This document shows, piece after piece, positions 1 through 11,796 of a DNA stretch of 12,090 nt. The translations under genes and the position numbers were made by a program. The notes under the pieces were generated by a model. The model did no database searches and was not told where the DNA came from. It worked only from the letters and a program-made list of their open reading frames with translations. The number at the start of each line of letters is the position of its first letter. Within the stretch, counting starts at the first letter, position 1. The stretch is from a bacterium (GTDB lineage Bacteria > Acidobacteriota > Blastocatellia > HR10), in NCBI GenBank assembly GCA_041640655.1, contig JBEPZV010000065.1, forward strand, positions 1 through 12,090. The letters run 5' to 3'.

Positions 1-484
1 GTTCCACGAAGTGGCGCAGCCGTTCGGGTCGGCGCCGTATCGCCGAATTCCGTTCGGGATGCGCGAGGACTGGTCGAACTCCGACAGTCAACAACTCAAA
101 GAAGAGCCGCTCGACACCCGGAGGAATGATCTCGGGCGGAAACTCCAGCAGCACCGACGATGTGCCGGCCAGAAGGAGCGCGCGATCCCCGTCCGCTGAG
201 GACTGAGCGAGACGCCCCGCCCAGTCTCGCACCTCGGGGACGATCCGCACCTCCGCGCCCGGCAGCAGGCGCAGCCGCCCCTGAAGCGCATGATTCAACC
301 GCGCCAAGTGCGCGCGGATCACCATGGGGTCGGGATTCGGAGAGCGCACCCAGAAAAAGTGCGGCGTGGCCACGGCGAGCGTGACCCCTTCGTCCGCCAG
401 TCGAGCCCCGAGCGCGAGAGCCTCCTCCCACGTCTCCGGCCCATCGTCCACGCCCGGCAGCACATGACAGTGCAGATCAATCAC
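1..484 (-). CDS. CpsB/CapC/YwqE-family PHP-type protein-tyrosine phosphatase (3' end beyond window edge)
   Basis: Not in the ORF track; translated by hand. GTG at 484-482 overlaps the wzc TGA (GTGA). Reads MIDLHCHVLPGVDDGPETWEEALAL...VATPH...LLPGAEVRI...VLLEFP...PVLAHPERNS and stays open to base 1. DxHxH, DDG, ATPH, GxE and AHPER are the CpsB family motifs. Confidence 0.95.
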   Translation of the reverse strand, partial: MIDLHCHVLPGVDDGPETWEEALALGARLADEGVTLAVATPHFFWVRSPNPDPMVIRAHLARLNHALQGRLRLLPGAEVRIVPEVRDWAGRLAQSSADGDRALLLAGTSSVLLEFPPEIIPPGVERLFFELLTVGVRPVLAHPERNSAIRRRPERLRHFVE

Positions 485-2778
485 GATGCGCCCTCCGAGG
501 AAGAACGGTCCGCACCGATCGCCTCGGGTCTCTCCGCGGACTCCGCGACCTCGCGGTCGCCAGCATAGTAGTAGCGATAGTAGTAGTACGAGTACCCATC
601 CTGCGTCACATCCACGCGATTGAGGACGACGCCGAAGATGCGCGCGTTCACATCCAAGAGCGCCTGATGCGCGCGATGCACCAGCTCGCGCGGCGTCTCC
701 CCACAGCGGATGATGAGGATCACACCATCCACCAGCGCCGAGAGCACGAGCGTATCTGGCGTGGAGACCGGCGGCGAATCCAGGAGGATGAAATCATACC
801 GCTCGCTCACCTGCTTCATCAGCTCGCGCATCTTGGCCGATCCGAGCAACTCCGAGGGATTGGGGGGGACCGCCCCCGCCGGGATCACGAAGAGGTTCTC
901 CGCAGGCTGATGGATGATGACGGTCTCCAGGTCGAGCGGACGCGTCAAATAGGCCGAGAGCCCAGGATGATTCTTCACGTTCAAGGCTTTGTGCAAGCCA
1001 GGCTTGCGCATGTCCCCATCAATGAGCAACACGCGCGCGCCCATCTGCGCGAGCGAGATCGCCGTGTTGATGGCCGTCGTCGTCTTCCCCTCGCCGGGCC
1101 CGCTGGAGGTGAAGAGAATCGTCCGCGGGGGATGCTCCGCGTGGGAGAGCAAGACCGAGGTGCGCAGCGTGCGAAATGCTTCGGCGAAGCTCGAGCGTTG
1201 TCGCTGGCTGATCAAAATGGGACGCTCCTCTTCCTTCCGCCGAGGAAGGCGCGGCAGCGCTGACCACGGCCTCCGCTCCAAGCTCTCCAGTGCCGGCACG
1301 AGCCCGAGCACCGGTAGACCGAGCAGCCGGTCCACATCCTCGGTGGACTTCACCGTGTTGTCCAGATATTCGACGAACAGCGCCAAACCGATGCCGAGCA
1401 GAAGCCCGACGATCACGCTGAGGCCGATGTTGAAGAGCTTCCGGGGCCGAGCTGGACGCAGGGGAACCTCGGCCTTGTCGAGAATTTGAATGTTGGTGGT
1501 CGTCAGCGTCGAGAGCAATTTCACATCGTTGAGCTTCTCGAGCAACCCCTCGTAGAGCTGGGTCGTCACCTCGACTTCGCGCTTGCGCAAGCTCAGCTCG
1601 ATGGCCCGCTCGTTCTGGCGCAGCGTCTCGGCGCGCTGCCGCTCCAAGGCCGCGCGCAGATCGTTCTCGCGCCGCACGGCGGCTCGGTATTCGGCCTCGA
1701 TGTTGGCCACGATACGGCGCTTGGCCAGAGCCAATTGCCGCTCGGCCTCGGCGATCTGCTCGCGCACGCGAGCGACGCGCGGATGCGTCGGCTGATACTC
1801 CACGTTCAGTTGCGCCAGCTCCTGACGCAGCTCGGCCAATCGGGCGTTCAACGCCTGAACCTGCGGATCGGCCAGGACCGGTGGCAAGGCGTCAATCTCC
1901 CCCTCGCGGCTGAGCCGATAGAGCGTCTCAGCGCGAATCCGATCGGTCTCGGCCTCGACCAGCCGCCGGTTCAAGTCGGCCAGTCGCTCGACCGTGATCG
2001 TCTGGTTCTCGCTGAGCTGCACGATCTCGTTCTCCCGGCTATATCGGACCAGCTCCTCCTGCGCCTTCTCGGCCCGATCGCGCAAGAGGGTGAGCTGCTC
2101 CTGCAACCACTCGGTCGCCTTGCGCGTCGAATCCGAGCGCGCCTCCAGCATGTACTCGCCGTACTGCGCGAACAGCTCGTTGACGGCGCGCGCGGCCAAC
2201 TGAGGATCGTGCGCGCTATAGGTGACGGCCACCACGCGCGTGTTGCGCACAAGTTCCACTTTGAGGTTCTCCAGGAAGCGATCAATCAGCAACACGCGCC
2301 GCCGGTCCGGATCGGCGACCCGCGCCGTGATGTCCGCGAACTCCGGATGCTTCTCCAGCCCGAGCGCCTCGATGACGCGACGCGCCAGCTCCCGACTCCG
2401 CAGGACGTTCTGCTGCGTCTCCAGATACTGCGCGTCGTTGGAGGAGAGATCGGCGCCGGTCTCCTTCTCCCGCGTCACCCGCAACGGCATCTGCGGATTG
2501 ATGATGATCCGCCCCGTGGATTCGTACACGACCGGCAATTGGGACATGCGGATCGTCACAATGGTGACGACCACCAGCATCACACTCAGGACGATCCACC
2601 GCCGCTTCTTGATCACCCGCCAGTAGTCGAGCAGGTGGATGTCGCGTTCGCCCCCCTCCTCGAAGGCGCTCGCCGGATAGAACTTCATCACGTGTCCCGA
2701 CGGCGCTCCCGGCGCATGCAGCGAGGATCGCTCCGAAGGAGTGGGCGGGAGAAAGGGTCTCTCTCCAGATTCCGCCAT
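481..2778 (-). CDS. wzc: Polysaccharide co-polymerase / BY-kinase, fused Wzc/GumC type (765 aa)
   Basis: N-terminal Wzz-like segment (IHLLDYWRVIKKRRWIVL plus TM helix), long coiled coil, PxRP plus second TM helix, Walker A SSGPGEGKTT, LLIDGDMRKP, Walker B ILLDSPP, C-terminal Tyr cluster GYSYYYYRYYY. Purine-rich RBS (GGGGAGGGGAG) upstream of the ATG. Confidence 0.96.
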   Translation of the reverse strand: MAESGERPFLPPTPSERSSLHAPGAPSGHVMKFYPASAFEEGGERDIHLLDYWRVIKKRRWIVLSVMLVVVTIVTIRMSQLPVVYESTGRIIINPQMPLRVTREKETGADLSSNDAQYLETQQNVLRSRELARRVIEALGLEKHPEFADITARVADPDRRRVLLIDRFLENLKVELVRNTRVVAVTYSAHDPQLAARAVNELFAQYGEYMLEARSDSTRKATEWLQEQLTLLRDRAEKAQEELVRYSRENEIVQLSENQTITVERLADLNRRLVEAETDRIRAETLYRLSREGEIDALPPVLADPQVQALNARLAELRQELAQLNVEYQPTHPRVARVREQIAEAERQLALAKRRIVANIEAEYRAAVRRENDLRAALERQRAETLRQNERAIELSLRKREVEVTTQLYEGLLEKLNDVKLLSTLTTTNIQILDKAEVPLRPARPRKLFNIGLSVIVGLLLGIGLALFVEYLDNTVKSTEDVDRLLGLPVLGLVPALESLERRPWSALPRLPRRKEEERPILISQRQRSSFAEAFRTLRTSVLLSHAEHPPRTILFTSSGPGEGKTTTAINTAISLAQMGARVLLIDGDMRKPGLHKALNVKNHPGLSAYLTRPLDLETVIIHQPAENLFVIPAGAVPPNPSELLGSAKMRELMKQVSERYDFILLDSPPVSTPDTLVLSALVDGVILIIRCGETPRELVHRAHQALLDVNARIFGVVLNRVDVTQDGYSYYYYRYYYAGDREVAESAERPEAIGADRSSSEGAS

Positions 2779-2809
2779 GATCTCCCCTCCCCTGCGCTCG
2801 ATCGTCGTC

Positions 2810-3823
2810 TCACCGCAACAGCCAGATCAGTTGCGACGCCGCTCCCAGACTGAAGGCGTTCAACATCGCCATCCCCACGTTGCGCATCGAGGAGGACGGG
2901 ACGAAGACGATGTCGTTCGGCTCCAGTGGCACATCCTTCACCTGATCCCGCTCCACCTTCTCCAGATCCACGACGATCTCCACCCGCTCGCTCCGTCCCG
3001 GCACATGCCGCAAGATCGTCACCTTGTTCTTCTGCGAGTGCGGACGCAGGCCGCCGGCGAGCGCGATCGCTTTGGTCAGCGTCATATCGCCGCGGATCCG
3101 AAAGGCGTTTGGATTCACGACGTTCCCCGTCACGAAGATCTGATCCGCCTCGGGCACGCTCACGATGTCCCCCGGATAGATGAGCGTGTTGACCAAGTCC
3201 CACTGTCCGCTGAGCAACTGCCGCAGGTCCACGACCTCAAGGCGCGGTTCGACCTCGCCGGCCGCCTCGCTCGCCGAAGCCGCGGGTCGCTTCCCCGTGC
3301 GAATGATGTGAATGGTGTTCCCCGCGTTCTCCGTCATCCCTCCGGCGGCAGCCAGCAGGTTCAACAAGCGCGTCCCGCGCACGATCTCATACCGATCCGG
3401 CTTGCGAACCGCGCCGATGACAGCCACGAACCGACTCCGCGACTCCTTCACGCGAACGACCACCTGAGGGTTTTTGAACAACGCCATGAGCTTCTGGCGA
3501 ATGATGTCGGCCAATTGATGCTCCGTATATCCGGCCGCCCGGATCGGCTCCGCAAAGGGAAGGATGCGAATATACCCTTTGAGCGAGACGCGCACATCGC
3601 CGCTCAAGTCCGGTTGCTCGAAGACGCGAATCTCCAGCAGGTCTTCCGGCCCGATGATGTACTCCTCCTCTTCCTCATCCGGCAGCGGACGCTCCGGCAC
3701 CTCTCGCTTCTCCTGGGACGTCCCGCGCTCGGGGGACGCCGCCGGAGCCCCTTGAGACCACGGAGTCACCCGAATGCCCCCTCCGAGACTCGCCATCACC
3801 AGAAGGCTCAGCACCCACATCAT
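2810..3823 (-). CDS. Polysaccharide export protein, OPX/Wza family (Poly_export plus SLBB domains)
   Basis: EYIIGPEDLLEIRVFEQPDLSGDVRVSLKGYIRILPFAEPIRAAG is the Poly_export motif. Two SLBB repeats follow (VAVIGAVRKP...AAAGG, IFVTGNVVNP...ALAGG, PNDIVFVP). Start moved from 4156 to ATG 3823 (MMWVLSLL signal peptide, GGAGGAG RBS), which removes the overlap with the upstream gene. Confidence 0.92.
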   Translation of the reverse strand: MMWVLSLLVMASLGGGIRVTPWSQGAPAASPERGTSQEKREVPERPLPDEEEEEYIIGPEDLLEIRVFEQPDLSGDVRVSLKGYIRILPFAEPIRAAGYTEHQLADIIRQKLMALFKNPQVVVRVKESRSRFVAVIGAVRKPDRYEIVRGTRLLNLLAAAGGMTENAGNTIHIIRTGKRPAASASEAAGEVEPRLEVVDLRQLLSGQWDLVNTLIYPGDIVSVPEADQIFVTGNVVNPNAFRIRGDMTLTKAIALAGGLRPHSQKNKVTILRHVPGRSERVEIVVDLEKVERDQVKDVPLEPNDIVFVPSSSMRNVGMAMLNAFSLGAASQLIWLLR

Positions 3824-3873
3824 CGCTCCTCCCCCCTCCGTATTCGGGGACTGCTCGATCGTCACAGGATCAC

Positions 3874-4932
3874 TCAAAATCCGCATCGGTTCCCCGCAAT
3901 CTCCCTCCCCACCTGCGTCACCACCTCGACGATGCCTCCGGCGGCGAGATCGGCAGGCGTCGCCGCCAGCACCGCCTGGTAATAGCCGAGGAAGGGTCCA
4001 TCGGCGCCCGTGACGACGTTCAACACCGTCAGACCAGGCAGCCGACTCCGGAACAAGACGCGGACGATCACGGGGGCTCCCCCAATCGGAGTCGTGCCCA
4101 AAGCGACCCGCCCGACCACGCGCAGCCCCCGACCAAAGAGTTTCTCCGCACGGCATTGGATCACGAGCGGGGGCCGCTCGGTCGTCTCCGGCGCGGGCAT
4201 CGGAGCGGGCGAATACCCCACACGCGCGCGCTCATCCACATGCTGGAATGGCAACACGGCGATGGCACGAGCCACCTCGGGAGGGACAGCGCGCAATGCT
4301 TGGACGAATCCTTCCTTCAACGGACGAATCACCATCCCTCCCTCGCGCGCGAAGATCTCATAGAGAGCTTCCCCAGCCCGCGCCCCCCGCAGCATCTGAC
4401 GATCCAAGGCCGGGCTCAAGCGAAGAGGATGCTCTGGTCCCTCGACCTCGATATCTTCGTGACCGCGCACCGTCGCTTCTCCGTAGAGAACGCGAAGGCG
4501 CAGCGTCGAGCCCGCACGAGAGAGCCGCACTCGGCTCGCCGGTCCGATGAAGATCACCCCCCGACCTTCATGTAAGCGCACGAAGGCCATGCTCGACGTC
4601 GTCTCAATGTCGCTCCCGTCCGGGACTGCGCTCCCCCAGAAGGTGGGAACGCCGTTGAGGCGCACAACACCATCTCCGACCGTGATCACTTCGCCCAAAA
4701 CCCCGCGCTCCGAAGGTGACCCTCGCTTGGAGACATCGCCGGCCAGTCTCACAGAAGAGGACTCAAAGCGAGCATTTGGCCCCGGGATTTTCGTCCCCTC
4801 ACGATCGCGAGCCGCCCTGGGCAGCCCCGCCGATCCAGAATCTGCCCTCACCCCCGCCAACAGAACAATCAGAAGACCTCCAATCCACAGATGGAGCCCC
4901 AACGCTTGAGACCATCGCCGACCGTCACACAT
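3874..4932 (-). CDS. Exported hypothetical protein with FecR-like beta domain and beta-rich C-terminal domain
   Basis: ATG 4932 with GGAGG RBS. Signal-like LWIGGLLIVLLAGVRA. Segment GVVRLNGV...GSDIETTSSMAFVRL...IFIGPASRVRL...LRVLYGEA resembles the FecR-domain pattern. Co-oriented with the wza-like gene, 50 bp upstream of it. Confidence 0.7.
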   Translation of the reverse strand: MCDGRRWSQALGLHLWIGGLLIVLLAGVRADSGSAGLPRAARDREGTKIPGPNARFESSSVRLAGDVSKRGSPSERGVLGEVITVGDGVVRLNGVPTFWGSAVPDGSDIETTSSMAFVRLHEGRGVIFIGPASRVRLSRAGSTLRLRVLYGEATVRGHEDIEVEGPEHPLRLSPALDRQMLRGARAGEALYEIFAREGGMVIRPLKEGFVQALRAVPPEVARAIAVLPFQHVDERARVGYSPAPMPAPETTERPPLVIQCRAEKLFGRGLRVVGRVALGTTPIGGAPVIVRVLFRSRLPGLTVLNVVTGADGPFLGYYQAVLAATPADLAAGGIVEVVTQVGREIAGNRCGF

Positions 4933-5121
4933 CCGCTCGTCCCTCCGCCCACGCTTCTGCACGATCCCAAGAACGTGCGCACCGCAGATCCCCTCTTCTC
5001 ACCCGCTGCGCGATCTGCCACGCGACCCTCCATCTCACAGACCGCCACACGCGCTCTCGTCGCTCGCCCCAAGACGTCACCTCGCGCGCCTCGACTGCCC
5101 ATGCCTCTCTCATTGGCCCGT

Positions 5122-5531: not shown

Positions 5532-7358
5532 ATGCCTCGCGTGATGCGCATTCTGCTGCTCACCTGCGCCCTCATCCTCAGCGGCGCAATCGAGCGTCCG
5601 CTGCCATCGGTTACTCGCTCGACCTCGCTTCCATCGAGTCGGCCCCGCTACGCCCCTGACCGTCTCATCGTCGGCCTTCGACCGGGCGTATCGCTGCCGA
5701 CGGGACCTGTCGTCTCGGCTGAGAAGATACCGCATGCGCTGTTTCGAGAGCTGGCCGCGACGGCCGGACTTCGCGAGATCATCCGTCTGGCGCCTGCTCT
5801 CCCTCCTCCATCCGACCGCCAGCGCGTGAACGAAGCGCTCATGCGACGCGCCCCTCGCTCCTTTCCGGAAGCGGCGCTTCTTCTCGAACGCCATGGCGTG
5901 GATCGCCTGATCGCGCTCCGGTTCGCCCGCCCGATTGATCCCCCGCGACTGGCCGAGACGCTCCTGCGCCAATATCCGAATGCGATCGAATTCGCTGAGC
6001 CCGATTACATCCTCCGCTCTCAGCTCGTCCCGAATGATCCGCTCTTCGGTCTCCAATGGTATCTCCGCGACCGCAATGTCTTCCCGGAACGGCGAGCCGA
6101 CGTGTGGGCGCCGGAAGCGTGGGACATCACGACGGGGAGCTCAGAGGTGGTCATTGCTGTCATTGACACTGGCATAGATGCGACGCATCCGGACCTCGCG
6201 CGCAAGCTCTTCGTCAACCCGGGGGAAATCCCCAACAATGGCGCGGATGACGATGGCAACGGATTCGCGGATGATGTCTCGGGATGGGACTTCGTCCGTC
6301 GGGATCCTGATCCGGATGACGAGAATGGACATGGGACATGGATGAGCAGTCTGGCGGCGGCCGAGACCAATAACGCTCTGCATATCGCCGGCATCAGTTG
6401 GGGGAGCCGCATCCTTCCCTTGAAGGCGGGAGATGAACGAGGGAACTTCTCAACGTCCACGATCATTCAGGCAGTCAACTACGCCGTGGCGATGGCTCCG
6501 CGCGGCGTGCGCGTCATCAACATGAGCTTCGGTGGTCCGGGGACGAGCGTGGGACTCGAACGCGCCCTGGCCGCGGCCAATGACGCGCGCATCATCGCCA
6601 TCGCGGCCGCGGGGAACGATGGGCAGAATAACGATGCGGCTCCGCAACTCCCCGCCTATCTCACGACGAGGCTCGACAACGTCGTCGCCGTGGCGGCGAC
6701 GGATCGGTTCAATCAACTGGCCTATTTCTCCAATTACGGACGGCGGAACGTGGACGTGGGCGCTCCGGGCGTGGGGATCATCGGCCTCACGACGCGAAAT
6801 CCGGCAGCGGAGCTTGGGCGCAGCGAGGGCACGATCACCGGAAATGGGACCTCCCAAGCGGCGGCGCTGGTGAGCGGCATCGCCGCGTTGATCTATTCGG
6901 CGTATCCCGAAAGCGCGCCGATTCAGGTGAAGGTCCGATTGCTGGCCAATGCCGATCGTATCCCGGAGCTTGCGGAGAAACTCGTCTCCGGCGGGCGCGT
7001 GAACGCCTTCCGAGCGCTCGATCGCGATGAGGTCGCGCCGGCCCCGATCACCGATCTGCGCGTCCTCAGCGGGGTCACGCCGCCCACGCTCACCTGGACG
7101 GCGACGGGCGATGATGGTCTTCTCGGGCAAGCGGCTTTCTATGATATTCGCTACAGCTCCTCCCCGATCACGGCCAGCACCTTGCGCTTCGCCATTCGCG
7201 TGAAAGATCCCCCGCGCCCACAACCGGCCGGGACGATCGAGACCTGGACCATCCCTTCGGACATCCCGCCGCGCACGTACTACTTCCTCATCCGCGTCTT
7301 CGATAATGCCGGGAATATGGCGGAATCGAATCAGGTGGAAGTCACCCTCACGCCCTGA
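5532..7358 (+). CDS. Secreted S8 (subtilisin-like) serine peptidase with pro-domain and C-terminal FN3-like domain
   Basis: Catalytic Asp in VIAVIDTG (6165), His in DENGHGT (6330), oxyanion Asn in AAGNDG, Ser in GTSQA (6852). Also AEPDY..PNDP pro/mature junction, the DDDGNGFADDVSGWDF insert, and C-terminal DEVAPAPITDL...LTWTATGDDG...YDIRYS. Signal peptide MRILLLTCALILSG. The start could be 5532, 5541 or 5544. Confidence 0.95.
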   Translation: MPRVMRILLLTCALILSGAIERPLPSVTRSTSLPSSRPRYAPDRLIVGLRPGVSLPTGPVVSAEKIPHALFRELAATAGLREIIRLAPALPPPSDRQRVNEALMRRAPRSFPEAALLLERHGVDRLIALRFARPIDPPRLAETLLRQYPNAIEFAEPDYILRSQLVPNDPLFGLQWYLRDRNVFPERRADVWAPEAWDITTGSSEVVIAVIDTGIDATHPDLARKLFVNPGEIPNNGADDDGNGFADDVSGWDFVRRDPDPDDENGHGTWMSSLAAAETNNALHIAGISWGSRILPLKAGDERGNFSTSTIIQAVNYAVAMAPRGVRVINMSFGGPGTSVGLERALAAANDARIIAIAAAGNDGQNNDAAPQLPAYLTTRLDNVVAVAATDRFNQLAYFSNYGRRNVDVGAPGVGIIGLTTRNPAAELGRSEGTITGNGTSQAAALVSGIAALIYSAYPESAPIQVKVRLLANADRIPELAEKLVSGGRVNAFRALDRDEVAPAPITDLRVLSGVTPPTLTWTATGDDGLLGQAAFYDIRYSSSPITASTLRFAIRVKDPPRPQPAGTIETWTIPSDIPPRTYYFLIRVFDNAGNMAESNQVEVTLTP

Positions 7359-7371
7359 AGCCAGAAGGTGT

Positions 7372-7398
7372 GGAATAAACGACCCGCTCGATTGTGTT
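7372..7398 (+). promoter_or_regulatory. ECF-type (SigH/SigR-like) autoregulatory promoter
   Basis: GGAAT (7372-7376), 19 bp spacer, GTT (7396-7398) upstream of the ECF sigma gene. The SigR/SigH consensus is GGAAT-N18/19-GTT. Confidence 0.65.
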
Positions 7399-7475
7399 CA
7401 CTCAATGAGTACGGACGCAGGGAGATGCGCGCCGGGGCGCGAGAAAACATGAGCCTCGAGGATGAGGACTGAGCG

Positions 7476-8114
7476 ATGATTCGGCGATGGCGAGCGCGCA
7501 ATCATGCAGAGCGGGAGTTCGAGCGCCAGGCCCTGGCGTATCTGGACGGACTCTACAACTTCGCCATGGCGTTGACGCGAGACCGAACGGAGGCGGAGGA
7601 TTTGGTGCAGGAGACCTATTTTCGCGCGTTTCGCGGAGCGGCTCAGAAACTGCCGACCGGCGATATCAAGGCCTGGCTCTTCACGATCATGCGCCACATC
7701 TGGATCAACGATCGGCGGCGAAGAGCGCGGCAACCGGACGCCGAAGGCCTGGAGGCCGGGGAGGAAGAGTCCGGATCCTCCGGGACGGCGATGGCCGATG
7801 ATCGGCATCGTCCGGACCTGCTGCATGAGCAGAACGCGTTGGGCGAAGCGATTCGCCGAGCTATTGAGAGCCTGCCCGAGGTATACCGCGAGGTCATCGT
7901 CCTGCGCTTCCTGGAGGGATTCAGCTACAGCCAAATCGCCACGATCCTCGGTTGTCCGGCGGGGACGGTCATGTCGCGCATCAGTCGCGCCCGCGCCGAG
8001 CTGCGGAAACGGTTGAGCCCTCACGTGTACGGAGAATGCGCCGCCAATCCGCCGCACGGAGGAGCGGGCGATGAGCGGGAGGAGAAACGCCTGCGCAGTG
8101 GGGGGATCATATGA
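7476..8114 (+). CDS. ECF RNA polymerase sigma factor, SigH/SigR-like
   Basis: Region 2: ALAYLDGLYNFAMALTRDRTEAEDLVQETYFRAF...KAWLFTIMRHIWIN. Region 4: AIESLPEVYREVIVLRFLEGFSYSQIATILGCPAGTVMSRISRAR. GAGG RBS upstream; ATGA overlap with the next gene. Confidence 0.96.
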   Translation: MIRRWRARNHAEREFERQALAYLDGLYNFAMALTRDRTEAEDLVQETYFRAFRGAAQKLPTGDIKAWLFTIMRHIWINDRRRRARQPDAEGLEAGEEESGSSGTAMADDRHRPDLLHEQNALGEAIRRAIESLPEVYREVIVLRFLEGFSYSQIATILGCPAGTVMSRISRARAELRKRLSPHVYGECAANPPHGGAGDEREEKRLRSGGII

Positions 8115-8947
8115 GGGATCACGTCGCGCACTTGATCGAGCTGTATCTGGATGAAGAGCTGCAGGGTGAAGAGCGCCGGCACGTCGAGGCGCATGTGGCC
8201 CAGTGCGCCGAATGTCGAGCCCGGCTGGAGCGAGAGCGACGCTTCATGGCTTTGCTCGCACATGCGCGCCCACTCTATGACGTGCCCGAGAGCGTCCGCG
8301 CGCGTGTGGAGCAGATGTGGGCTCGCGCTCAGCGCGTGCGACCGCGCGTCTGGTCGTGGGCTCTCGGCCTCGCTGCCCTGCTCCTCATCGGCCTTGCCAT
8401 CCGAGGCGCTCTTCGCGAACGCGTTCTCCCCCCCACGGCCGATCACGCGCGCCACAGTTCGGAGTTCGCTCTTCTGGCTGCCAATACGCATCAGCGTTGG
8501 GTGCGGGGGCAGCTCCCCCTGGAGATTCGGAGCCAATCGCCCGAAGAGATCTCCGCCTGGTTCGCCGATAAGGTCCCGTTCAATCTGAAGCTCCCGAGCT
8601 TTCGAGAATTCCCCGGCCAGTCGAAGCCCTATCAACTGGAGGGCGCGCGCTTGGTGAGCTTCAAGAACGATTACGCCGCCTATGTCACCTACCGGATGCG
8701 CAATCGCCCCATCTCTCTTCTGGTCACTTCGGAGACCGTCGTTCGTCCCTCCGGAGGCGAGGAGATTCGCGCCCAGGGTTTGGTCTTCCACTTCGAGGAG
8801 ATCAACGGGTGGAAGGTCCTCACGTGGTCGGATCGCGGCTTGACCTACGCCTTGGTCTCCGACTTCGAAGAGCGCGGCCAAGCTTCGTGCATGGTCTGTC
8901 ATCCCGGCGCCAATGAGCAGCATAAACTCGAAGAGCTGCGACGATGA
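8111..8947 (+). CDS. Membrane-anchored zinc-binding anti-sigma factor (zf-HC2/ZAS) with C-terminal CxxCH
   Basis: H4...YLDEEL...H28xxxC32xxC35 ZAS motif, TM helix at about aa 80-97, extracytoplasmic anti-sigma-type domain (LEGARLV...AAYVTYR...ISLLV...VLTWSDRGLTYALVSD), and C260-M-V-C263-H264. Translationally coupled to the sigma gene. Confidence 0.92.
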   Translation: MRDHVAHLIELYLDEELQGEERRHVEAHVAQCAECRARLERERRFMALLAHARPLYDVPESVRARVEQMWARAQRVRPRVWSWALGLAALLLIGLAIRGALRERVLPPTADHARHSSEFALLAANTHQRWVRGQLPLEIRSQSPEEISAWFADKVPFNLKLPSFREFPGQSKPYQLEGARLVSFKNDYAAYVTYRMRNRPISLLVTSETVVRPSGGEEIRAQGLVFHFEEINGWKVLTWSDRGLTYALVSDFEERGQASCMVCHPGANEQHKLEELRR

Positions 8948-8950
8948 ACG

Positions 8951-8993
8951 GGAAGCGCCCTCGCCTTCCAACGGCCAGAAGGCATGCGCTTCC
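8951..8993. terminator. Hairpin between convergent genes (possible bidirectional terminator, no U-tract)
   Basis: GGAAGCGC (8951-8958) / GCGCTTCC (8986-8993) outer stem plus GCCTTC / GAAGGC inner stem. Confidence 0.5.
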
Positions 8994-9016
8994 ACAGCCT
9001 GTCCTCGCGAAAGGGC

Positions 9017-9418
9017 TCACGTGGTCTCCGGCGGCGTTTTCATGGCCAGCCGGTGGAGGAACCGCGCCAGCTCGATCGGAGCGCGCACGTGCGTCCCCTC
9101 GCCGATCTTCTCCCGTTCATCGTAGGCCTCGACGGAGAATGTGACCGAGCGCTCATCCACGGCGACGACCTCGGCCCGAGCCGTGACCGCCATCCCCACC
9201 GGCGTCGCCGCCAGATGTCGCACGGCGACCGAGATGCCGACCGAAATCCATCCCTCGGGAAGATACGGCTGAATGGCTTCGGCCGCTGCGATCTCCATGA
9301 GATAGATCATCATCGGCGTCGCCAAAACGGCCGGAAGGCGCTCATCCACGCGCGCGATCGTCAGCTCCCGAGTCACCGTCCACGTCTTCGTCGCCGATAC
9401 GCCCACTGGAATGCGCAT
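9017..9418 (-). CDS. Hotdog-fold thioesterase, FlK (fluoroacetyl-CoA thioesterase)-like family
   Basis: VLATPMMIYLMEIAA...SVG...VRHLAATPVG...KIGEGTHVRA keeps the Thr/Glu/His pattern of the FlK family. Start set at ATG 9418 (GGAGGGAG RBS) rather than 9496. Confidence 0.92.
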   Translation of the reverse strand: MRIPVGVSATKTWTVTRELTIARVDERLPAVLATPMMIYLMEIAAAEAIQPYLPEGWISVGISVAVRHLAATPVGMAVTARAEVVAVDERSVTFSVEAYDEREKIGEGTHVRAPIELARFLHRLAMKTPPETT

Positions 9419-9458
9419 CCTGCTCCCTCCATGAATCGTCGCGCTCGCATGCTTCGCC

Positions 9459-9504
9459 ATTATACCCGGCCTTCCATTGACACGCCCTCCCGTCATGCTA
9501 TGCT
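9459..9504. promoter_or_regulatory. Back-to-back divergent sigma70-type promoters
   Basis: Plus strand: TTGACA (9477-9482), 16 bp spacer, TATGCT (9499-9504) with TGn. Minus strand: perfect TATAAT (9464-9459) with no recognisable -35. Confidence 0.65.
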
Positions 9505-9531
9505 AGAGGGAGAAATCCATCGGGAGGAGCG

Positions 9532-10230
9532 ATGATCATGTCGGAACGCACGGCGCGATCCGGGCCTTCCTTGGGGCTCATCGAGACGATCTTCGACGAT
9601 TTCCTCGCCCGCTTGGAGGAGAAGCTCGCCGATCCGCGACTCGATCGCAACGAGATCGTGCGCGATCTGCTCTACGAGCTGTATCTGGCCGAGGCGCCGA
9701 ATTTTCAGCGGCTGGGCGATTACACGTTCCCCATTGCCGCGCGCACCCTGATCGCGTGCTTCGATCCGAGAAACGTGACGTTGGAGGTCGAAACGAGCGC
9801 CGAGCTGGACCGGCAGCGGTACGCGGAGCGAAAACCGCTCATCTGGCTCTGGCGGATGTTCGATGATTCCCCGCTGGGGTTGAACGCGCATCTCGGCCTG
9901 CGGCTTCGTCGTCTTCTGGCCCCGTATATCTTCGCACGGGTTGGAGCGAACCTCACCTGCCACCGGGGGCTCCGCTGGAATTACGGATACAACATCGCTC
10001 TCGGAGACAACGTCGTGATTCAGAACGACGTGACCCTGGATGATCGCGGGGCGATCGAGATCGGGGATGATGTCTGCCTGGAGAGCGGCGCACATATTCT
10101 GGCCGCGCCCTCAGAAGCGACGACGCGCATCGGGCGCGGCGTCCGCATCGGCGCGCGGGCCATCGTGCTGGCGGGCGCTCAGATCCCGGATGGGATGACG
10201 ATCCCCCCGGCCGGCATCATGGGGCCATGA
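9532..10230 (+). CDS. Hexapeptide-repeat (left-handed beta-helix) acyltransferase-like protein with helical N-terminal domain, possibly catalytically degenerate
   Basis: RRLLAPYIFARVGAN...YGYNIALGDNVVIQNDVTLDDRGAIEIGDDVCL...TRIGRGVRIGARAIVLAGAQI hexapeptide coils. GGGAGGAG RBS. Confidence 0.85.
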   Translation: MIMSERTARSGPSLGLIETIFDDFLARLEEKLADPRLDRNEIVRDLLYELYLAEAPNFQRLGDYTFPIAARTLIACFDPRNVTLEVETSAELDRQRYAERKPLIWLWRMFDDSPLGLNAHLGLRLRRLLAPYIFARVGANLTCHRGLRWNYGYNIALGDNVVIQNDVTLDDRGAIEIGDDVCLESGAHILAAPSEATTRIGRGVRIGARAIVLAGAQIPDGMTIPPAGIMGP

Positions 10231-10892
10231 ACGAGAGGGGGATGAGCCGAATCGGAGCGAAGATCCGCACGTCCGATCAGGCACGGCGCGGGATCCTGCT
10301 CATCGTCCTCGCGCTCCTGCTGGGACGATTCCCGGAGAAAGCGATCGGGGAGTCCGCATGGGGATCGAGGCTCACCGCGTCTGCGCAAGCGCCCTCCCCG
10401 CAGAAGCCACCAGCTCCCGCCGAAACGGGGTCGGCGCGCGATCGAGAGAAGCAGGAATCGTCCGCGCGAGATCCCCTCACGGATCCAGAGCGGGAGCTGT
10501 TGGACCGCGCCGCCATCGAATATCGAAAGGCTGAACATCGCCGCGCCGTCGAAGCATCGGAGCAGATTCTGGCGCGAGCGCGCGAGCTCAGCCAGCAGTG
10601 GGAGCGGCACCGTCGCTCCCGGCGCTCGGAGGAATTGCTTCGAGAGATCGAGCGCTTCGCGCGCCGCGTCCGCTCCATCAGTGGGGCGGGCGATCTGGAA
10701 GCTCGCGAGCCGTTGCCTGAAGACCCGATGCAGGCGCTCGCGCGGTTGCGCGAATCGGCCGAGCGGTTGCACAAAGCCCTGAAGGCCCTCACTGCCTACG
10801 TCGTCTCGATCGAGGTCATGGAGCGCTCGGATGAGATCATCCGCCTCGCGCGATATCTGCGCGAGCGCGCGCGCGCCGATCAGGGGACGTGA
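10227..10892 (+). CDS. Exported alpha-helical hypothetical protein
   Basis: ATGA overlap with the previous gene (alternative start 10242). Hydrophobic signal ARRGILLIVLALLLG, Pro/Ala linker, then Arg/Glu-rich helical segments. Ends 1 bp before the VWA gene. Confidence 0.75.
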   Translation: MNERGMSRIGAKIRTSDQARRGILLIVLALLLGRFPEKAIGESAWGSRLTASAQAPSPQKPPAPAETGSARDREKQESSARDPLTDPERELLDRAAIEYRKAEHRRAVEASEQILARARELSQQWERHRRSRRSEELLREIERFARRVRSISGAGDLEAREPLPEDPMQALARLRESAERLHKALKALTAYVVSIEVMERSDEIIRLARYLRERARADQGT

Positions 10893-10893
10893 G

Positions 10894-11796
10894 ATGCTCC
10901 ACCGCCGGATCCCTGCCGTCCTCAGCATCGTCGTCGCGCTCAACGGCGGATGGCCCCAGCACGCGGAACAGGAGCCGATCCTTCGGTTGGACGCTCCCCT
11001 TGTCTTGCTCAACGTCACCGTCACCGGTGGCGATGGCCGCTATCTCTCGAAGCTCGAGGAGCGCGACTTCACCATCCTCGAAGATGGACGCCCGCAGCCG
11101 ATCGTCCATTTCAGCGCTGAGGAGACCCCCTTCGCCGTCGCGATCCTCCTGGACGTCAGCGGGAGCATGGAGCGCATGCTGCGGATCGCGCGCGCGGCCG
11201 CACGCGGATTCGTCCAAGGGCTTCGCGAGAACGATGTCTTCGCCCTCTATGCCTTCGCCACGCAGTTCGCGCAGATTCAACCGTTCGGCTCATACCCGGA
11301 GATCGAGCCGGAGGTCTGGAGCTTGAAGGCGGAGGGATACACGGCCCTGTACGATTGCCTGGTGAACGCCGCGCGGGATCTGGCCGCGCGTCCGGAGAAA
11401 CGGCGCGCCATCTTGCTGCTTTCCGACGGTGCGGATACGGCCAGTCGGGCCTCGCTCGAGGAGGCGCTTCGGGAAGCGCTCGCGGCGAGTGTGACCATCT
11501 ACGCCGTGGACCTCATGGACGAGACGTCGGCCTCTCCGGCCGATGTCCTGCGCGCCCGCAGCGCCCTTCGCACCCTGAGCGAGCAGACCGGCGGCCGATA
11601 CATCCGCGACCCGGGCGGAGCCCAGATGGACGCGACGTTTCGCGCGATCGTTCAAGAGCTGGGCCACCAGTACACGCTCGGCTATTATCCCGCCCTGGAG
11701 CGGCGCGATGGGCGATGGCACCGCATCGAGGTGCGTGTCGCGCGCCCGGGCGTCACCGTGCGCACGCGGCGCGGGTATTATGCCCCTCGAGGATGA
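10894..11796 (+). CDS. VWA-domain protein, Acidobacterial VWFA-related type
   Basis: LVLLNVTVT...DFTILEDGRPQPI..F, MIDAS DVSGSM, T in GYTALYD, D in LLSDGADT, QYTLGYYP...DGRWHRIEV...RTRRGYYAP. ATG 10894 after AGGGGA, followed by a signal-like N-terminus. Confidence 0.93.
   Translation: MLHRRIPAVLSIVVALNGGWPQHAEQEPILRLDAPLVLLNVTVTGGDGRYLSKLEERDFTILEDGRPQPIVHFSAEETPFAVAILLDVSGSMERMLRIARAAARGFVQGLRENDVFALYAFATQFAQIQPFGSYPEIEPEVWSLKAEGYTALYDCLVNAARDLAARPEKRRAILLLSDGADTASRASLEEALREALAASVTIYAVDLMDETSASPADVLRARSALRTLSEQTGGRYIRDPGGAQMDATFRAIVQELGHQYTLGYYPALERRDGRWHRIEVRVARPGVTVRTRRGYYAPRG

Follow-up and report, generated by a model that had tools for sequence, protein, structure and literature searches.

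The sigma and anti-sigma genes

The window analysed here, a stretch of 12,090 nucleotides (nt) at positions 1 to 12,090 of contig JBEPZV010000065.1 (assembly GCA_041640655.1; Acidobacteriota, Blastocatellia, HR10), contains adjacent genes for a sigma factor of the extracytoplasmic function (ECF) class and for an anti-sigma factor with a zinc-binding ZAS domain, preceded by a promoter of the ECF type (Table 1). The anti-sigma factor has a single membrane helix and, near its C-terminus, a CxxCH motif that is a candidate site for the covalent attachment of heme c on the far side of the membrane.

The two genes share the sequence ATGA (8111-8114), in which the start codon of the second and the stop codon of the first overlap. 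The sigma factor scores as a generic ECF protein (101.3 bits against NCBIfam TIGR02937, sigma70-ECF; cutoff 42.9), and its tail after region 4, some 30 residues long (182-212; 8021-8114), is rich in glycine and charged residues and has no family match. The promoter element at 7372-7398, GGAATAAACGACCCGCTCGATTGTGTT, is the sole match in the window to the pattern GGAAT-N14-18-GTGTT, with 0.03 matches expected and at least one match in 6 of 200 shuffles. A scan of 7200-9200 gave neither sigma-70-like promoters nor intrinsic terminators, and Rfam and tRNA scans returned nothing.

Two features expected of a ZAS anti-sigma factor are present, HxxxCxxC in the N-terminal anti-sigma domain and an adjoining ECF sigma gene. 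Pfam zf-HC2 (PF13490) covers residues 5-36 (E 7.6e-8; 32.8 bits, cutoff 22.2). Solved relatives were found by sequence only for the N-terminal 80 or so residues: RsrA (5frf, E 8.8e-7), RsiW (5wuq, E 8.2e-6), DdvA and 3hug. The protein has one hydrophobic segment, as Kyte-Doolittle hydropathy over 19 residues peaks at 2.0 (start residue 83) and the runner-up outside starts 55-105 reaches 0.42. Because an N-terminal sigma-binding ZAS domain is followed by a single transmembrane (TM) helix, the C-terminus is predicted to lie outside the cytoplasm. The entire protein has four cysteines (32, 35, 260 and 263), so that past the TM helix there are none but those of the CxxCH. A first-pass annotation, made from the sequence alone, had described the open reading frame (ORF) with its N-terminal zinc site, the single TM helix, the promoter and a CMVCH 14 residues ahead of the stop codon that holds the only cysteines beyond the membrane. 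Translation, the Pfam match, hydropathy and the promoter scan bear out this description, and a cytoplasmic C-terminus, which would have told against a heme, is not indicated by the predicted topology.

Table 1. Features of the sigma/anti-sigma locus, with positions in the window (aa, amino acids)
Feature	Position	Strand	Basis or remark
ECF-type autoregulatory promoter, GGAATAAA-N14-GTGTT	7372..7398	+	-35 GGAATAAA, -10 GTGTT
ECF sigma factor gene, 212 aa	7476..8114	+	Pfam Sigma70_r2, Sigma70_r4_2, Sigma70_ECF
Anti-sigma factor gene, 278 aa	8111..8947	+	ZAS domain, one TM helix, predicted periplasmic domain with CxxCH
Zinc-finger motif H28-x3-C32-x2-C35, cytoplasmic	8192..8215	+	within the PF13490 match
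Single TM helix, about residues 80-98	8348..8404	+	Kyte-Doolittle hydropathy
Predicted extracytoplasmic domain, residues 105-278	8423..8944	+	AlphaFold2 model: two helices, seven-stranded antiparallel sheet, C-terminal CxxCH segment
H127, His in the first periplasmic helix	8489..8491	+	ancestral domain feature, not specific to the motif clade
H227, conserved His on a beta-strand	8789..8791	+	clade-specific; best distal-ligand or pocket candidate, with F226 and Y174
C260-M-V-C263-H264, candidate covalent heme c attachment site	8888..8902	+	conservation; 14 residues remain before the stop
S8 subtilase gene, 663 aa	5367..7358	+	Peptidase_S8, E 3.4e-51; position -1, ends 14 nt ahead of the ECF promoter

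Conservation of the CxxCH motif

The relatives of the extracytoplasmic domain form a large family. A close-homolog search with residues 105-278 gave 1823 word-indexed matches at E <= 1e-3, and in the best 120 of these, which reach down to 61% identity, C-[IVLM]-V-C-H is present in every protein (64 CIVCH, 33 CVVCH, 13 CLVCH and 10 CMVCH). More distant relatives were collected by an exhaustive search of 50%-identity representatives, with 3366 matches at E <= 1e-3, of which 556 reach E <= 1e-10; the best 150 were used. The resulting set of 151 identifiers (the query, P0027 and 149 others) was reduced to 112 representatives of 245-375 aa by dropping 39 fragments and long forms.

A complete aligned CxxCH is found in 104 of the 112 full-length representatives, and 87 of the 112 have exactly two cysteines beyond the TM helix. 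Residue by residue, C260 is kept in 105, C263 in 106 and H264 in 107, and the 104 motif-bearers have 32 different pairs of middle residues, LV, SS, ST, RT, NG, AR and VR among them. Among the eight exceptions, P0165, P0184, P0211 and P0244 resemble frameshifted gene calls and P0242 and P0264 are members of a motif-less family; the remaining two are considered with the objections below. Invariant Cys, Cys and His with free residues between them are the classic signature of a heme c site, and it is because these three are fixed while the middle pair is free that the motif reads as such a site. Judged by this pattern the motif is not there by chance, and the protein has two features of a heme c protein, a conserved CxxCH and its placement in a part of the chain that is extracytoplasmic by prediction. 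Loss of the motif in close homologs, or a variable His, had been named in the first-pass annotation as findings that would speak against a heme. The motif is instead kept in close and distant homologs alike, and the His varies no more than the Cys pair does, so that none of the three sequence-based objections named there, topology included, has materialized.

The zinc site is also retained, with H28 in 108 and C32 and C35 each in 107 of the 112 representatives. An extra N-terminal Cys ahead of a YLD motif, which we take to be the fourth zinc ligand of the RsrA type, occurs in 89 of the 112. The window protein is without it (residues 1-12; 8111-8146) and has His4 and His7 in its place, presumably a ligand set like that of ChrR. 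Since this Cys is lacking, a cytoplasmic disulfide switch of the RsrA type is not what one would expect of the window protein.

It is general knowledge that CxxC is also a classic redox-active dithiol and a classic metal-binding motif, and the first-pass annotation had named such a site as its alternative. The segment could thus be free of heme and act as a periplasmic thiol/disulfide switch, to which an oxidant-responsive regulon would be equally suited, or bind zinc or copper through a Cys2His site, perhaps completed by H227 or H127, two further conserved His that are available for the purpose. A dithiol switch, however, offers no reason for a highly conserved His after the second Cys, and here the conservation of that His matches that of the cysteines across all 32 middle pairs. 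Nor is any copper or zinc homeostasis gene found among the conserved neighbours in the 80 related loci described below. The hosts of relatives encode exported CxxCH cytochromes, and maturation systems are generally known to act on exported CxxCH. A heme-free site is on balance unlikely, and covalent attachment of heme at C260 and C263, with H264 as its proximal ligand, is probable.

A motif-less sister family and the origin of CxxCH

The motif-less P0264 leads to a family of its own. A search with this protein gave 32 proteins, none of which has a CxxCH, and three domain-only fragments of the family contain no Cys whatsoever; the C-terminus of the family is a generic D-[MIL]-x-x-L-V-S helix. 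A profile search with the family added 41 proteins, just two of them with CxxCH. The motif family and the P0264 family align by hhalign with a probability of 100% (E 1.3e-46) over residues 1-256 of the window protein, and the alignment ends just ahead of the S-C-x-x-C-H. A tree was made of 162 rows, 104 motif-bearing and 58 motif-less, the latter without a single CxxCH, and columns after residue 256 were excluded. Presence of the motif requires two state changes on this tree, against a mean of 47.8 when labels are shuffled, and none of 500 shuffles was equally low. Because the sister family shares the domain up to residue 256 but has no motif and closes with an ordinary helix, CxxCH is on this comparison a derived gain: it took the place of the ancestral C-terminal helix and has since been stably kept. 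Strict monophyly is not claimed. The sister group is a natural comparison set for experiments.

The ancestral domain works without the motif, and CxxCH might therefore be structural only, with or without heme, stabilizing the domain in place of the lost helix. The signal would then be perceived via another protein, through proteolysis on envelope damage or at the cytoplasmic zinc-thiol site. The RsrA-like N-terminal Cys of the 89 relatives could indeed form a cytoplasmic redox switch, and the supplement to the paper that re-classified the ECF sigma factors (PMC7826278) describes the sensing mechanisms of anti-sigma factors of the ECF26 type, to which the present one is compared below, as largely unknown. 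A purely structural role would not require three ligand residues to be retained so strictly, with two changes over 162 rows of a large and divergent family, and the window protein does without the extra N-terminal Cys; we consider such a role improbable.

The periplasmic domain and candidate axial ligands

No Pfam or NCBIfam family matches residues 105-278. The AlphaFold2 model of the domain has a mean pLDDT of 90.2 and a pTM of 0.85, with a core above 90. A motif-less relative, modelled likewise, has the same order of elements and ends in a helix with pLDDT 92-97; one long helix runs through the region equivalent to the TM segment. A fold search of the Protein Data Bank (PDB) with the periplasmic domain gave no match at E <= 1e-3. 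The best match is 1vr8 (E 3e-3, TMq 0.40), and the other resemblances, to RseB/MucB, TM1622, PsbP and DcrB, are weak. In the protein atlas the nearest clusters of the domain are unnamed, with DUF3379 (0.81) as a lead only.

Three residues of the domain distinguish motif-bearing from motif-less proteins of the tree set: F226 (84% of 104 against 12% of 58), Y174 (8630-8632; 83% against 7%) and H227 (82% against 16%). Position 227 in the P0264 family is His in 9, Tyr in 13 and another residue in 10 of 32 proteins. On this evidence H227 is the best candidate for a distal ligand or pocket residue of the putative heme, and a five-coordinate heme is equally possible.

Other candidates were tried and given up. 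H127 was rejected as a heme-specific ligand, since proteins that lack the motif keep it just as well (97% of them, and 32 of 32 in the P0264 family, beside 89% of those with the motif), and M196 was rejected as a distal Met, being conserved in only 49 of 112 representatives. The idea that H127 and H227 co-vary with the motif was likewise discarded, as none of 101 motif rows lacks both His and about 1.7 would be expected to do so by chance, a difference that is not significant.

Related loci and the class of the system

The gene neighbourhood was compared in 80 related loci with a total of 1,095,434 nt. By record label, 69 of these are from Acidobacteriota (54 Blastocatellia), six from 'Clostridia', two from Myxococcota and one from Tectimicrobiota, and two are unlabelled. 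The six records labelled Clostridia or Heliobacteriaceae (L003, L023, L041, L042, L072 and L078) are from metagenome-assembled genomes (MAGs), and their anti-sigma genes nest within Blastocatellia clades; the anti-sigma factor of L003 is 76% identical to that of the window, in a syntenic locus. These six labels look doubtful.

A sigma homolog lies beside the anti-sigma gene in 78 of the 80 loci and is the only universal neighbour. When the 17 ORFs of the window were compared with the loci by tblastn, only the sigma gene proved to be widely shared; the others are shared only with L001-L004, except that the gene for a VWA-domain protein occurs in two more loci. De novo clustering of the neighbours found RNase J, SDR, BacA and S9 and M64 peptidases in 15-25 loci, which we read as vertical synteny and not as function.

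The first-pass annotation had set the pair in the frame of SigH/SigR and their partners RshA/RsrA (ECF12). This assignment was rejected, as the sigma factor scores 126.8 bits against SigH_actino (TIGR02947; cutoff 251.55) and the anti-sigma factor 36.2 bits against RsrA (TIGR03988; cutoff 62.5), both under the curated cutoffs, and the anti-sigma factor is membrane-bound. The closer likeness in layout is to ECF26, whose members include PrtI/PrtR of Pseudomonas, RpoE1/RpoE4 of S. meliloti and SigE of Starkeya novella. As described in the supplement of PMC7826278, ECF26 systems have a one-TM zinc-finger anti-sigma factor at position +1, promoters with 'GGAATAAA in -35 and GTT in -10', and at position -1 catalases (ECF26s1) or subtilases (four subgroups). 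The window pair shares the layout of the anti-sigma factor and the promoter, and the genes at -1 are echoed by the subtilase of the window and by KatG or cytochrome c peroxidase (CCP) in relatives. The taxonomic range differs, ECF26 being reported to be 99.87% proteobacterial and the present family being mainly from Acidobacteriota, with no locus labelled Pseudomonadota. In the part of the supplement consulted, neither heme nor CxxCH nor cytochrome c is mentioned for the anti-sigma factors of ECF26. The pair is ECF26-like in architecture and promoter; it is set beside ECF26 by published description and is not called a member.

Divergent promoters and their partner genes

Of the 80 loci, 58 have the strict promoter motif of the window ahead of the sigma gene, 59 have its reverse complement further upstream, and 52 have both. 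The added distance to the reversed motif is mostly 25-130 nt and reaches about 365 nt in one locus. Elsewhere in the whole 1,095,434 nt the strict motif has only 8 matches. With a relaxed -10 element, GTG[AT]T, the corresponding counts are 62 upstream of sigma, 62 reversed, 55 with both and 20 elsewhere. As far as such motifs allow, the loci are seen to carry back-to-back promoters of one type.

The genes that diverge from the sigma operon were assigned to classes by a tblastn census of the 80 loci. A protein of about 465 aa with two CxxCH motifs is the partner in 27 loci, a canonical di-heme protein of the CCP family in 8, the catalase-peroxidase KatG in 7 and a GSDH-like beta-propeller, as first gene, in 17. 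Another 21 loci belong to none of the four classes, five of them with less than 1.1 kb of upstream sequence. The KatG assignment is firm (1284 bits, cutoff 981). The canonical di-heme partners are nearest to cytochrome c551 peroxidases (3o5c, 3.8e-50; 1eb7, 6.4e-50) and more distant from an MbnH-like enzyme (1e-39) and MauG (3e-29). Among the divergent proteins, the 46 with a length of 300 aa or more all have an N-terminus that resembles a signal sequence. The same sigma factor thus appears, from the promoters and the genes behind them, to switch on exported peroxide-destroying enzymes in relatives.

The family of about 465 aa is the commonest divergent partner (L014:2164-3561 and L053:7923-9317, both on the minus strand, and 25 more loci). 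These proteins are exported and usually have a CFDCH and a second CxxCH. They match no Pfam family; their first 240 or so residues match nothing and their C-terminal half has a weak likeness to di-heme peroxidases or MauG. The GSDH-like propeller (L065:8020-9204 and L077:3196-4428, both minus, and 15 more loci) is exported too, with a weak PF07995 match and a ScyD/ScyE-like match below cutoff; in L052 and L063, two of the 27 loci with the 465-aa di-heme protein, a GSDH-like gene stands behind the di-heme gene.

Partner class has switched many times on the anti-sigma tree, with 23 changes over five labels against a shuffled mean of 42.4. Loci L005-L007, which have a canonical CCP, fall with the window clade in an 11-row group with a support of 100, and their promoters differ from that of the window in several spacer bases and in a -10 of GTGAT for GTGTT. 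Because exported proteins with two CxxCH motifs stand next to the sigma/anti-sigma pair in 35 of the 80 loci, the gene content of these loci indicates that the hosts make and mature c-type cytochromes, a statement that applies to the loci of relatives and not to the genome of the window.

The partners also bear on what a heme might sense. All of the evidence for a heme c site would serve equally if the signal were a gas (NO, O2 or CO), the redox state of a periplasmic electron carrier, or the supply of heme or of cytochrome maturation, and the sigma factor would then tune exported heme enzymes accordingly. The partners in 42 of the 80 loci are themselves heme proteins, so a logic of heme supply or respiratory state is conceivable, and bacterial di-heme peroxidases are generally known to rely on periplasmic electron donors. 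The characterized c-heme Cache sensors detect NO and not O2, according to the text available of PMC12889525. KatG and cytochrome c peroxidases remove peroxide, however, and no gene for NO reductase, NO dioxygenase, heme uptake or heme biosynthesis was found among the conserved neighbours in the 80 loci; the GSDH-like partner suits such signals no better than it suits peroxide. A heme c sensor of one of these other signals is a minority possibility, somewhat ahead of a heme-free site in our estimation. The first-pass annotation had proposed that periplasmic redox, gas or heme-maturation status might be coupled to sigma release. It did not cover the likely output. Because the promoter type of relatives stands before exported peroxidase-family genes, peroxide or oxidant sensing is preferred to the sensing of heme maturation.

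A putative periplasmic heme sensor

The explanation that we favour runs as follows. The ZAS domain of the anti-sigma factor would hold the ECF sigma factor in the cytoplasm, and the protein would cross the membrane once to expose a domain of about 170 residues, helices and a beta-sheet, to the periplasm. There the S-C-x-x-C-H would carry one covalent c-type heme. Its proximal ligand would be H264, and the distal or pocket residue would most likely be H227 (sometimes Tyr). The heme would report the periplasmic load of oxidant, most likely hydrogen peroxide, and its reaction would change or destabilize the domain. This would inactivate the anti-sigma factor, probably through the kind of regulated proteolysis that acts on others with a single membrane pass. 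Once free, the sigma factor would act at GGAATAAA...GTGTT promoters, those of its own operon and, in most relatives, of a divergent gene for an exported protein of the peroxidase family. We put the probability of a periplasmic covalent-heme sensor for peroxide or oxidant that releases the ECF sigma factor at roughly 45%. The narrower proposal, direct sensing of H2O2 outside the cytoplasm to switch on exported heme peroxidases, is more tentative.

A number of observations weigh against this explanation. Two of the exceptions break the motif, with Cys260 to Arg in P0188 and His264 to Arg in P0193. The 80 loci were retrieved partly via a pattern containing SCxVCH and were for that reason left out of the counts of motif conservation. 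The search for a distal His or Met ligand, suggested in the first-pass annotation, turned up no invariant residue: H127 fell away as specific to heme, and the clade-specific H227, at 82% the candidate that stands, otherwise gives way to Tyr, Asn, Gln, Asp, Gly or Phe. Confidence in the domain model is lowest at the CxxCH tail (pLDDT 70, 66 and 65 in the last three blocks, domain residues 151-174), which is compatible with a segment that needs its cofactor for placement and is proof of nothing. Among the partners, the 27 di-heme proteins of about 465 aa resemble peroxidases weakly and only in their C-terminal half. The first divergent gene in 17 loci encodes the GSDH-like propeller and not a peroxidase, a partner that suits neither a peroxide nor a gas and heme-supply reading, and a further 21 loci fall in none of the four classes. 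Finally, the window clade (the window and L001-L004) has neither a divergent promoter nor a peroxidase neighbour and has the subtilase upstream instead. That the regulon of relatives applies to the window organism is an extrapolation, by analogy, from proteins of 43-59% identity.

If the proposed peroxide sensor is real, it would add a third chemistry of peroxide sensing in bacteria to the thiol-based OxyR and the metal-based PerR, and it would give ECF signalling its first sensor domain with a cofactor. How signals are perceived is obscure for most single-pass anti-sigma factors, those of the ECF26 type included, and a covalent heme would provide a mechanism that is tractable by spectroscopy. 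The link to exported KatG and CCP suggests a dedicated envelope response to peroxide in Acidobacteriota, a phylum that is abundant in soil and, to our knowledge, hardly studied for its regulation.

Relation to known sensors

RsrA and RshA, the partners of SigR and SigH, and ChrR have the N-terminal HxxxCxxC sigma-binding zinc domain in common with the window protein, and their regulons respond to oxidative or thiol stress. They act in the cytoplasm, with the zinc-thiol site or a cupin domain as the sensor, whereas the window anti-sigma factor spans the membrane and has an extracytoplasmic domain. The RpoE2-ChrR system of Shewanella oneidensis, which controls a periplasmic glutathione peroxidase (PMC4336711), likewise joins an ECF sigma factor and a ZAS anti-sigma factor in a response to oxidative stress, but its ChrR is a soluble cupin-type protein without membrane span, periplasmic domain or heme motif.

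The nearest precedent for the proposed input domain lies outside ECF signalling. The c-heme sensors GSU0582 and GSU0935 of Geobacter (sCache_heme, DUF3365) also have an extracytoplasmic domain with one CxxCH (PMC12889525, PMC3460858), and the available text of PMC12889525 describes how extracytoplasmic sensor folds that are otherwise free of cofactor acquired CxxCH and bind heme c in histidine kinases, chemoreceptors and c-di-GMP enzymes. The window domain differs in having no Cache fold or PF11845 match, and neither Cache nor PAS is among its fold matches. Its motif replaces a C-terminal helix, whereas that of the heme-c Cache domains is an insertion, and the output is an anti-sigma factor. 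The outputs in PMC12889525 are kinases, chemoreceptors and c-di-GMP enzymes, and the word 'sigma' occurs 0 times in the text available. Should the heme be confirmed, the outputs of extracytoplasmic heme-c sensors would extend from these three to the control of sigma factors.

No heme-c anti-sigma factor was found described in the full-text literature searched, subscription-only literature being outside its scope, in agreement with the first-pass annotation, which had known of none. In the portions consulted of the ECF re-classification paper, 'heme' is absent from the main text and 'CXXCH' from the supplement (PMC7826278). In the parts available of two other papers, CXXCH belongs to a protein other than the anti-sigma factor (PMC3884062) and an artificial heme tag serves as an assay (PMC10024687). 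No relevant link between ECF sigma factors, anti-sigma factors and cytochrome c peroxidase turned up by title or abstract in the literature searched. Our comparison suggests that what is new here is a cofactor-based periplasmic input domain on an otherwise known ECF/ZAS anti-sigma system.

Surroundings of the locus

The subtilase gene at position -1 is kept there only in the four closest loci, L001-L004, and a scan with the strict and the relaxed -10 element found no ECF-type motif upstream of it. A subtilase in this position is typical of some ECF26 subgroups, and PrtI/PrtR offer a precedent with a protease, so far as the published description goes. Downstream of the anti-sigma gene are genes for an FlK-type thioesterase (9017-9496, minus strand), a hexapeptide-repeat transferase (9532-10230, plus) and the VWA-domain protein (10831-11796, plus). 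The genes at 9017-11796 are syntenic only with L001-L004, apart from the two more loci with the VWA gene, and have no apparent link to the sigma system.

Upstream, the minus strand at 481-4156 encodes exopolysaccharide export, with a Wzz/GNVR/AAA_31 co-polymerase of the tyrosine-kinase type (481-2778) and a Poly_export/SLBB outer-membrane exporter (2810-4156). A 362-aa ORF without a Pfam family (3874-4962, minus) overlaps several plus-strand ORFs as well as the region where the Poly_export ORF is annotated to start, which leaves the gene boundaries ambiguous, and it recurs in L002 and L004 with 72-74% identity over about 285 aa.

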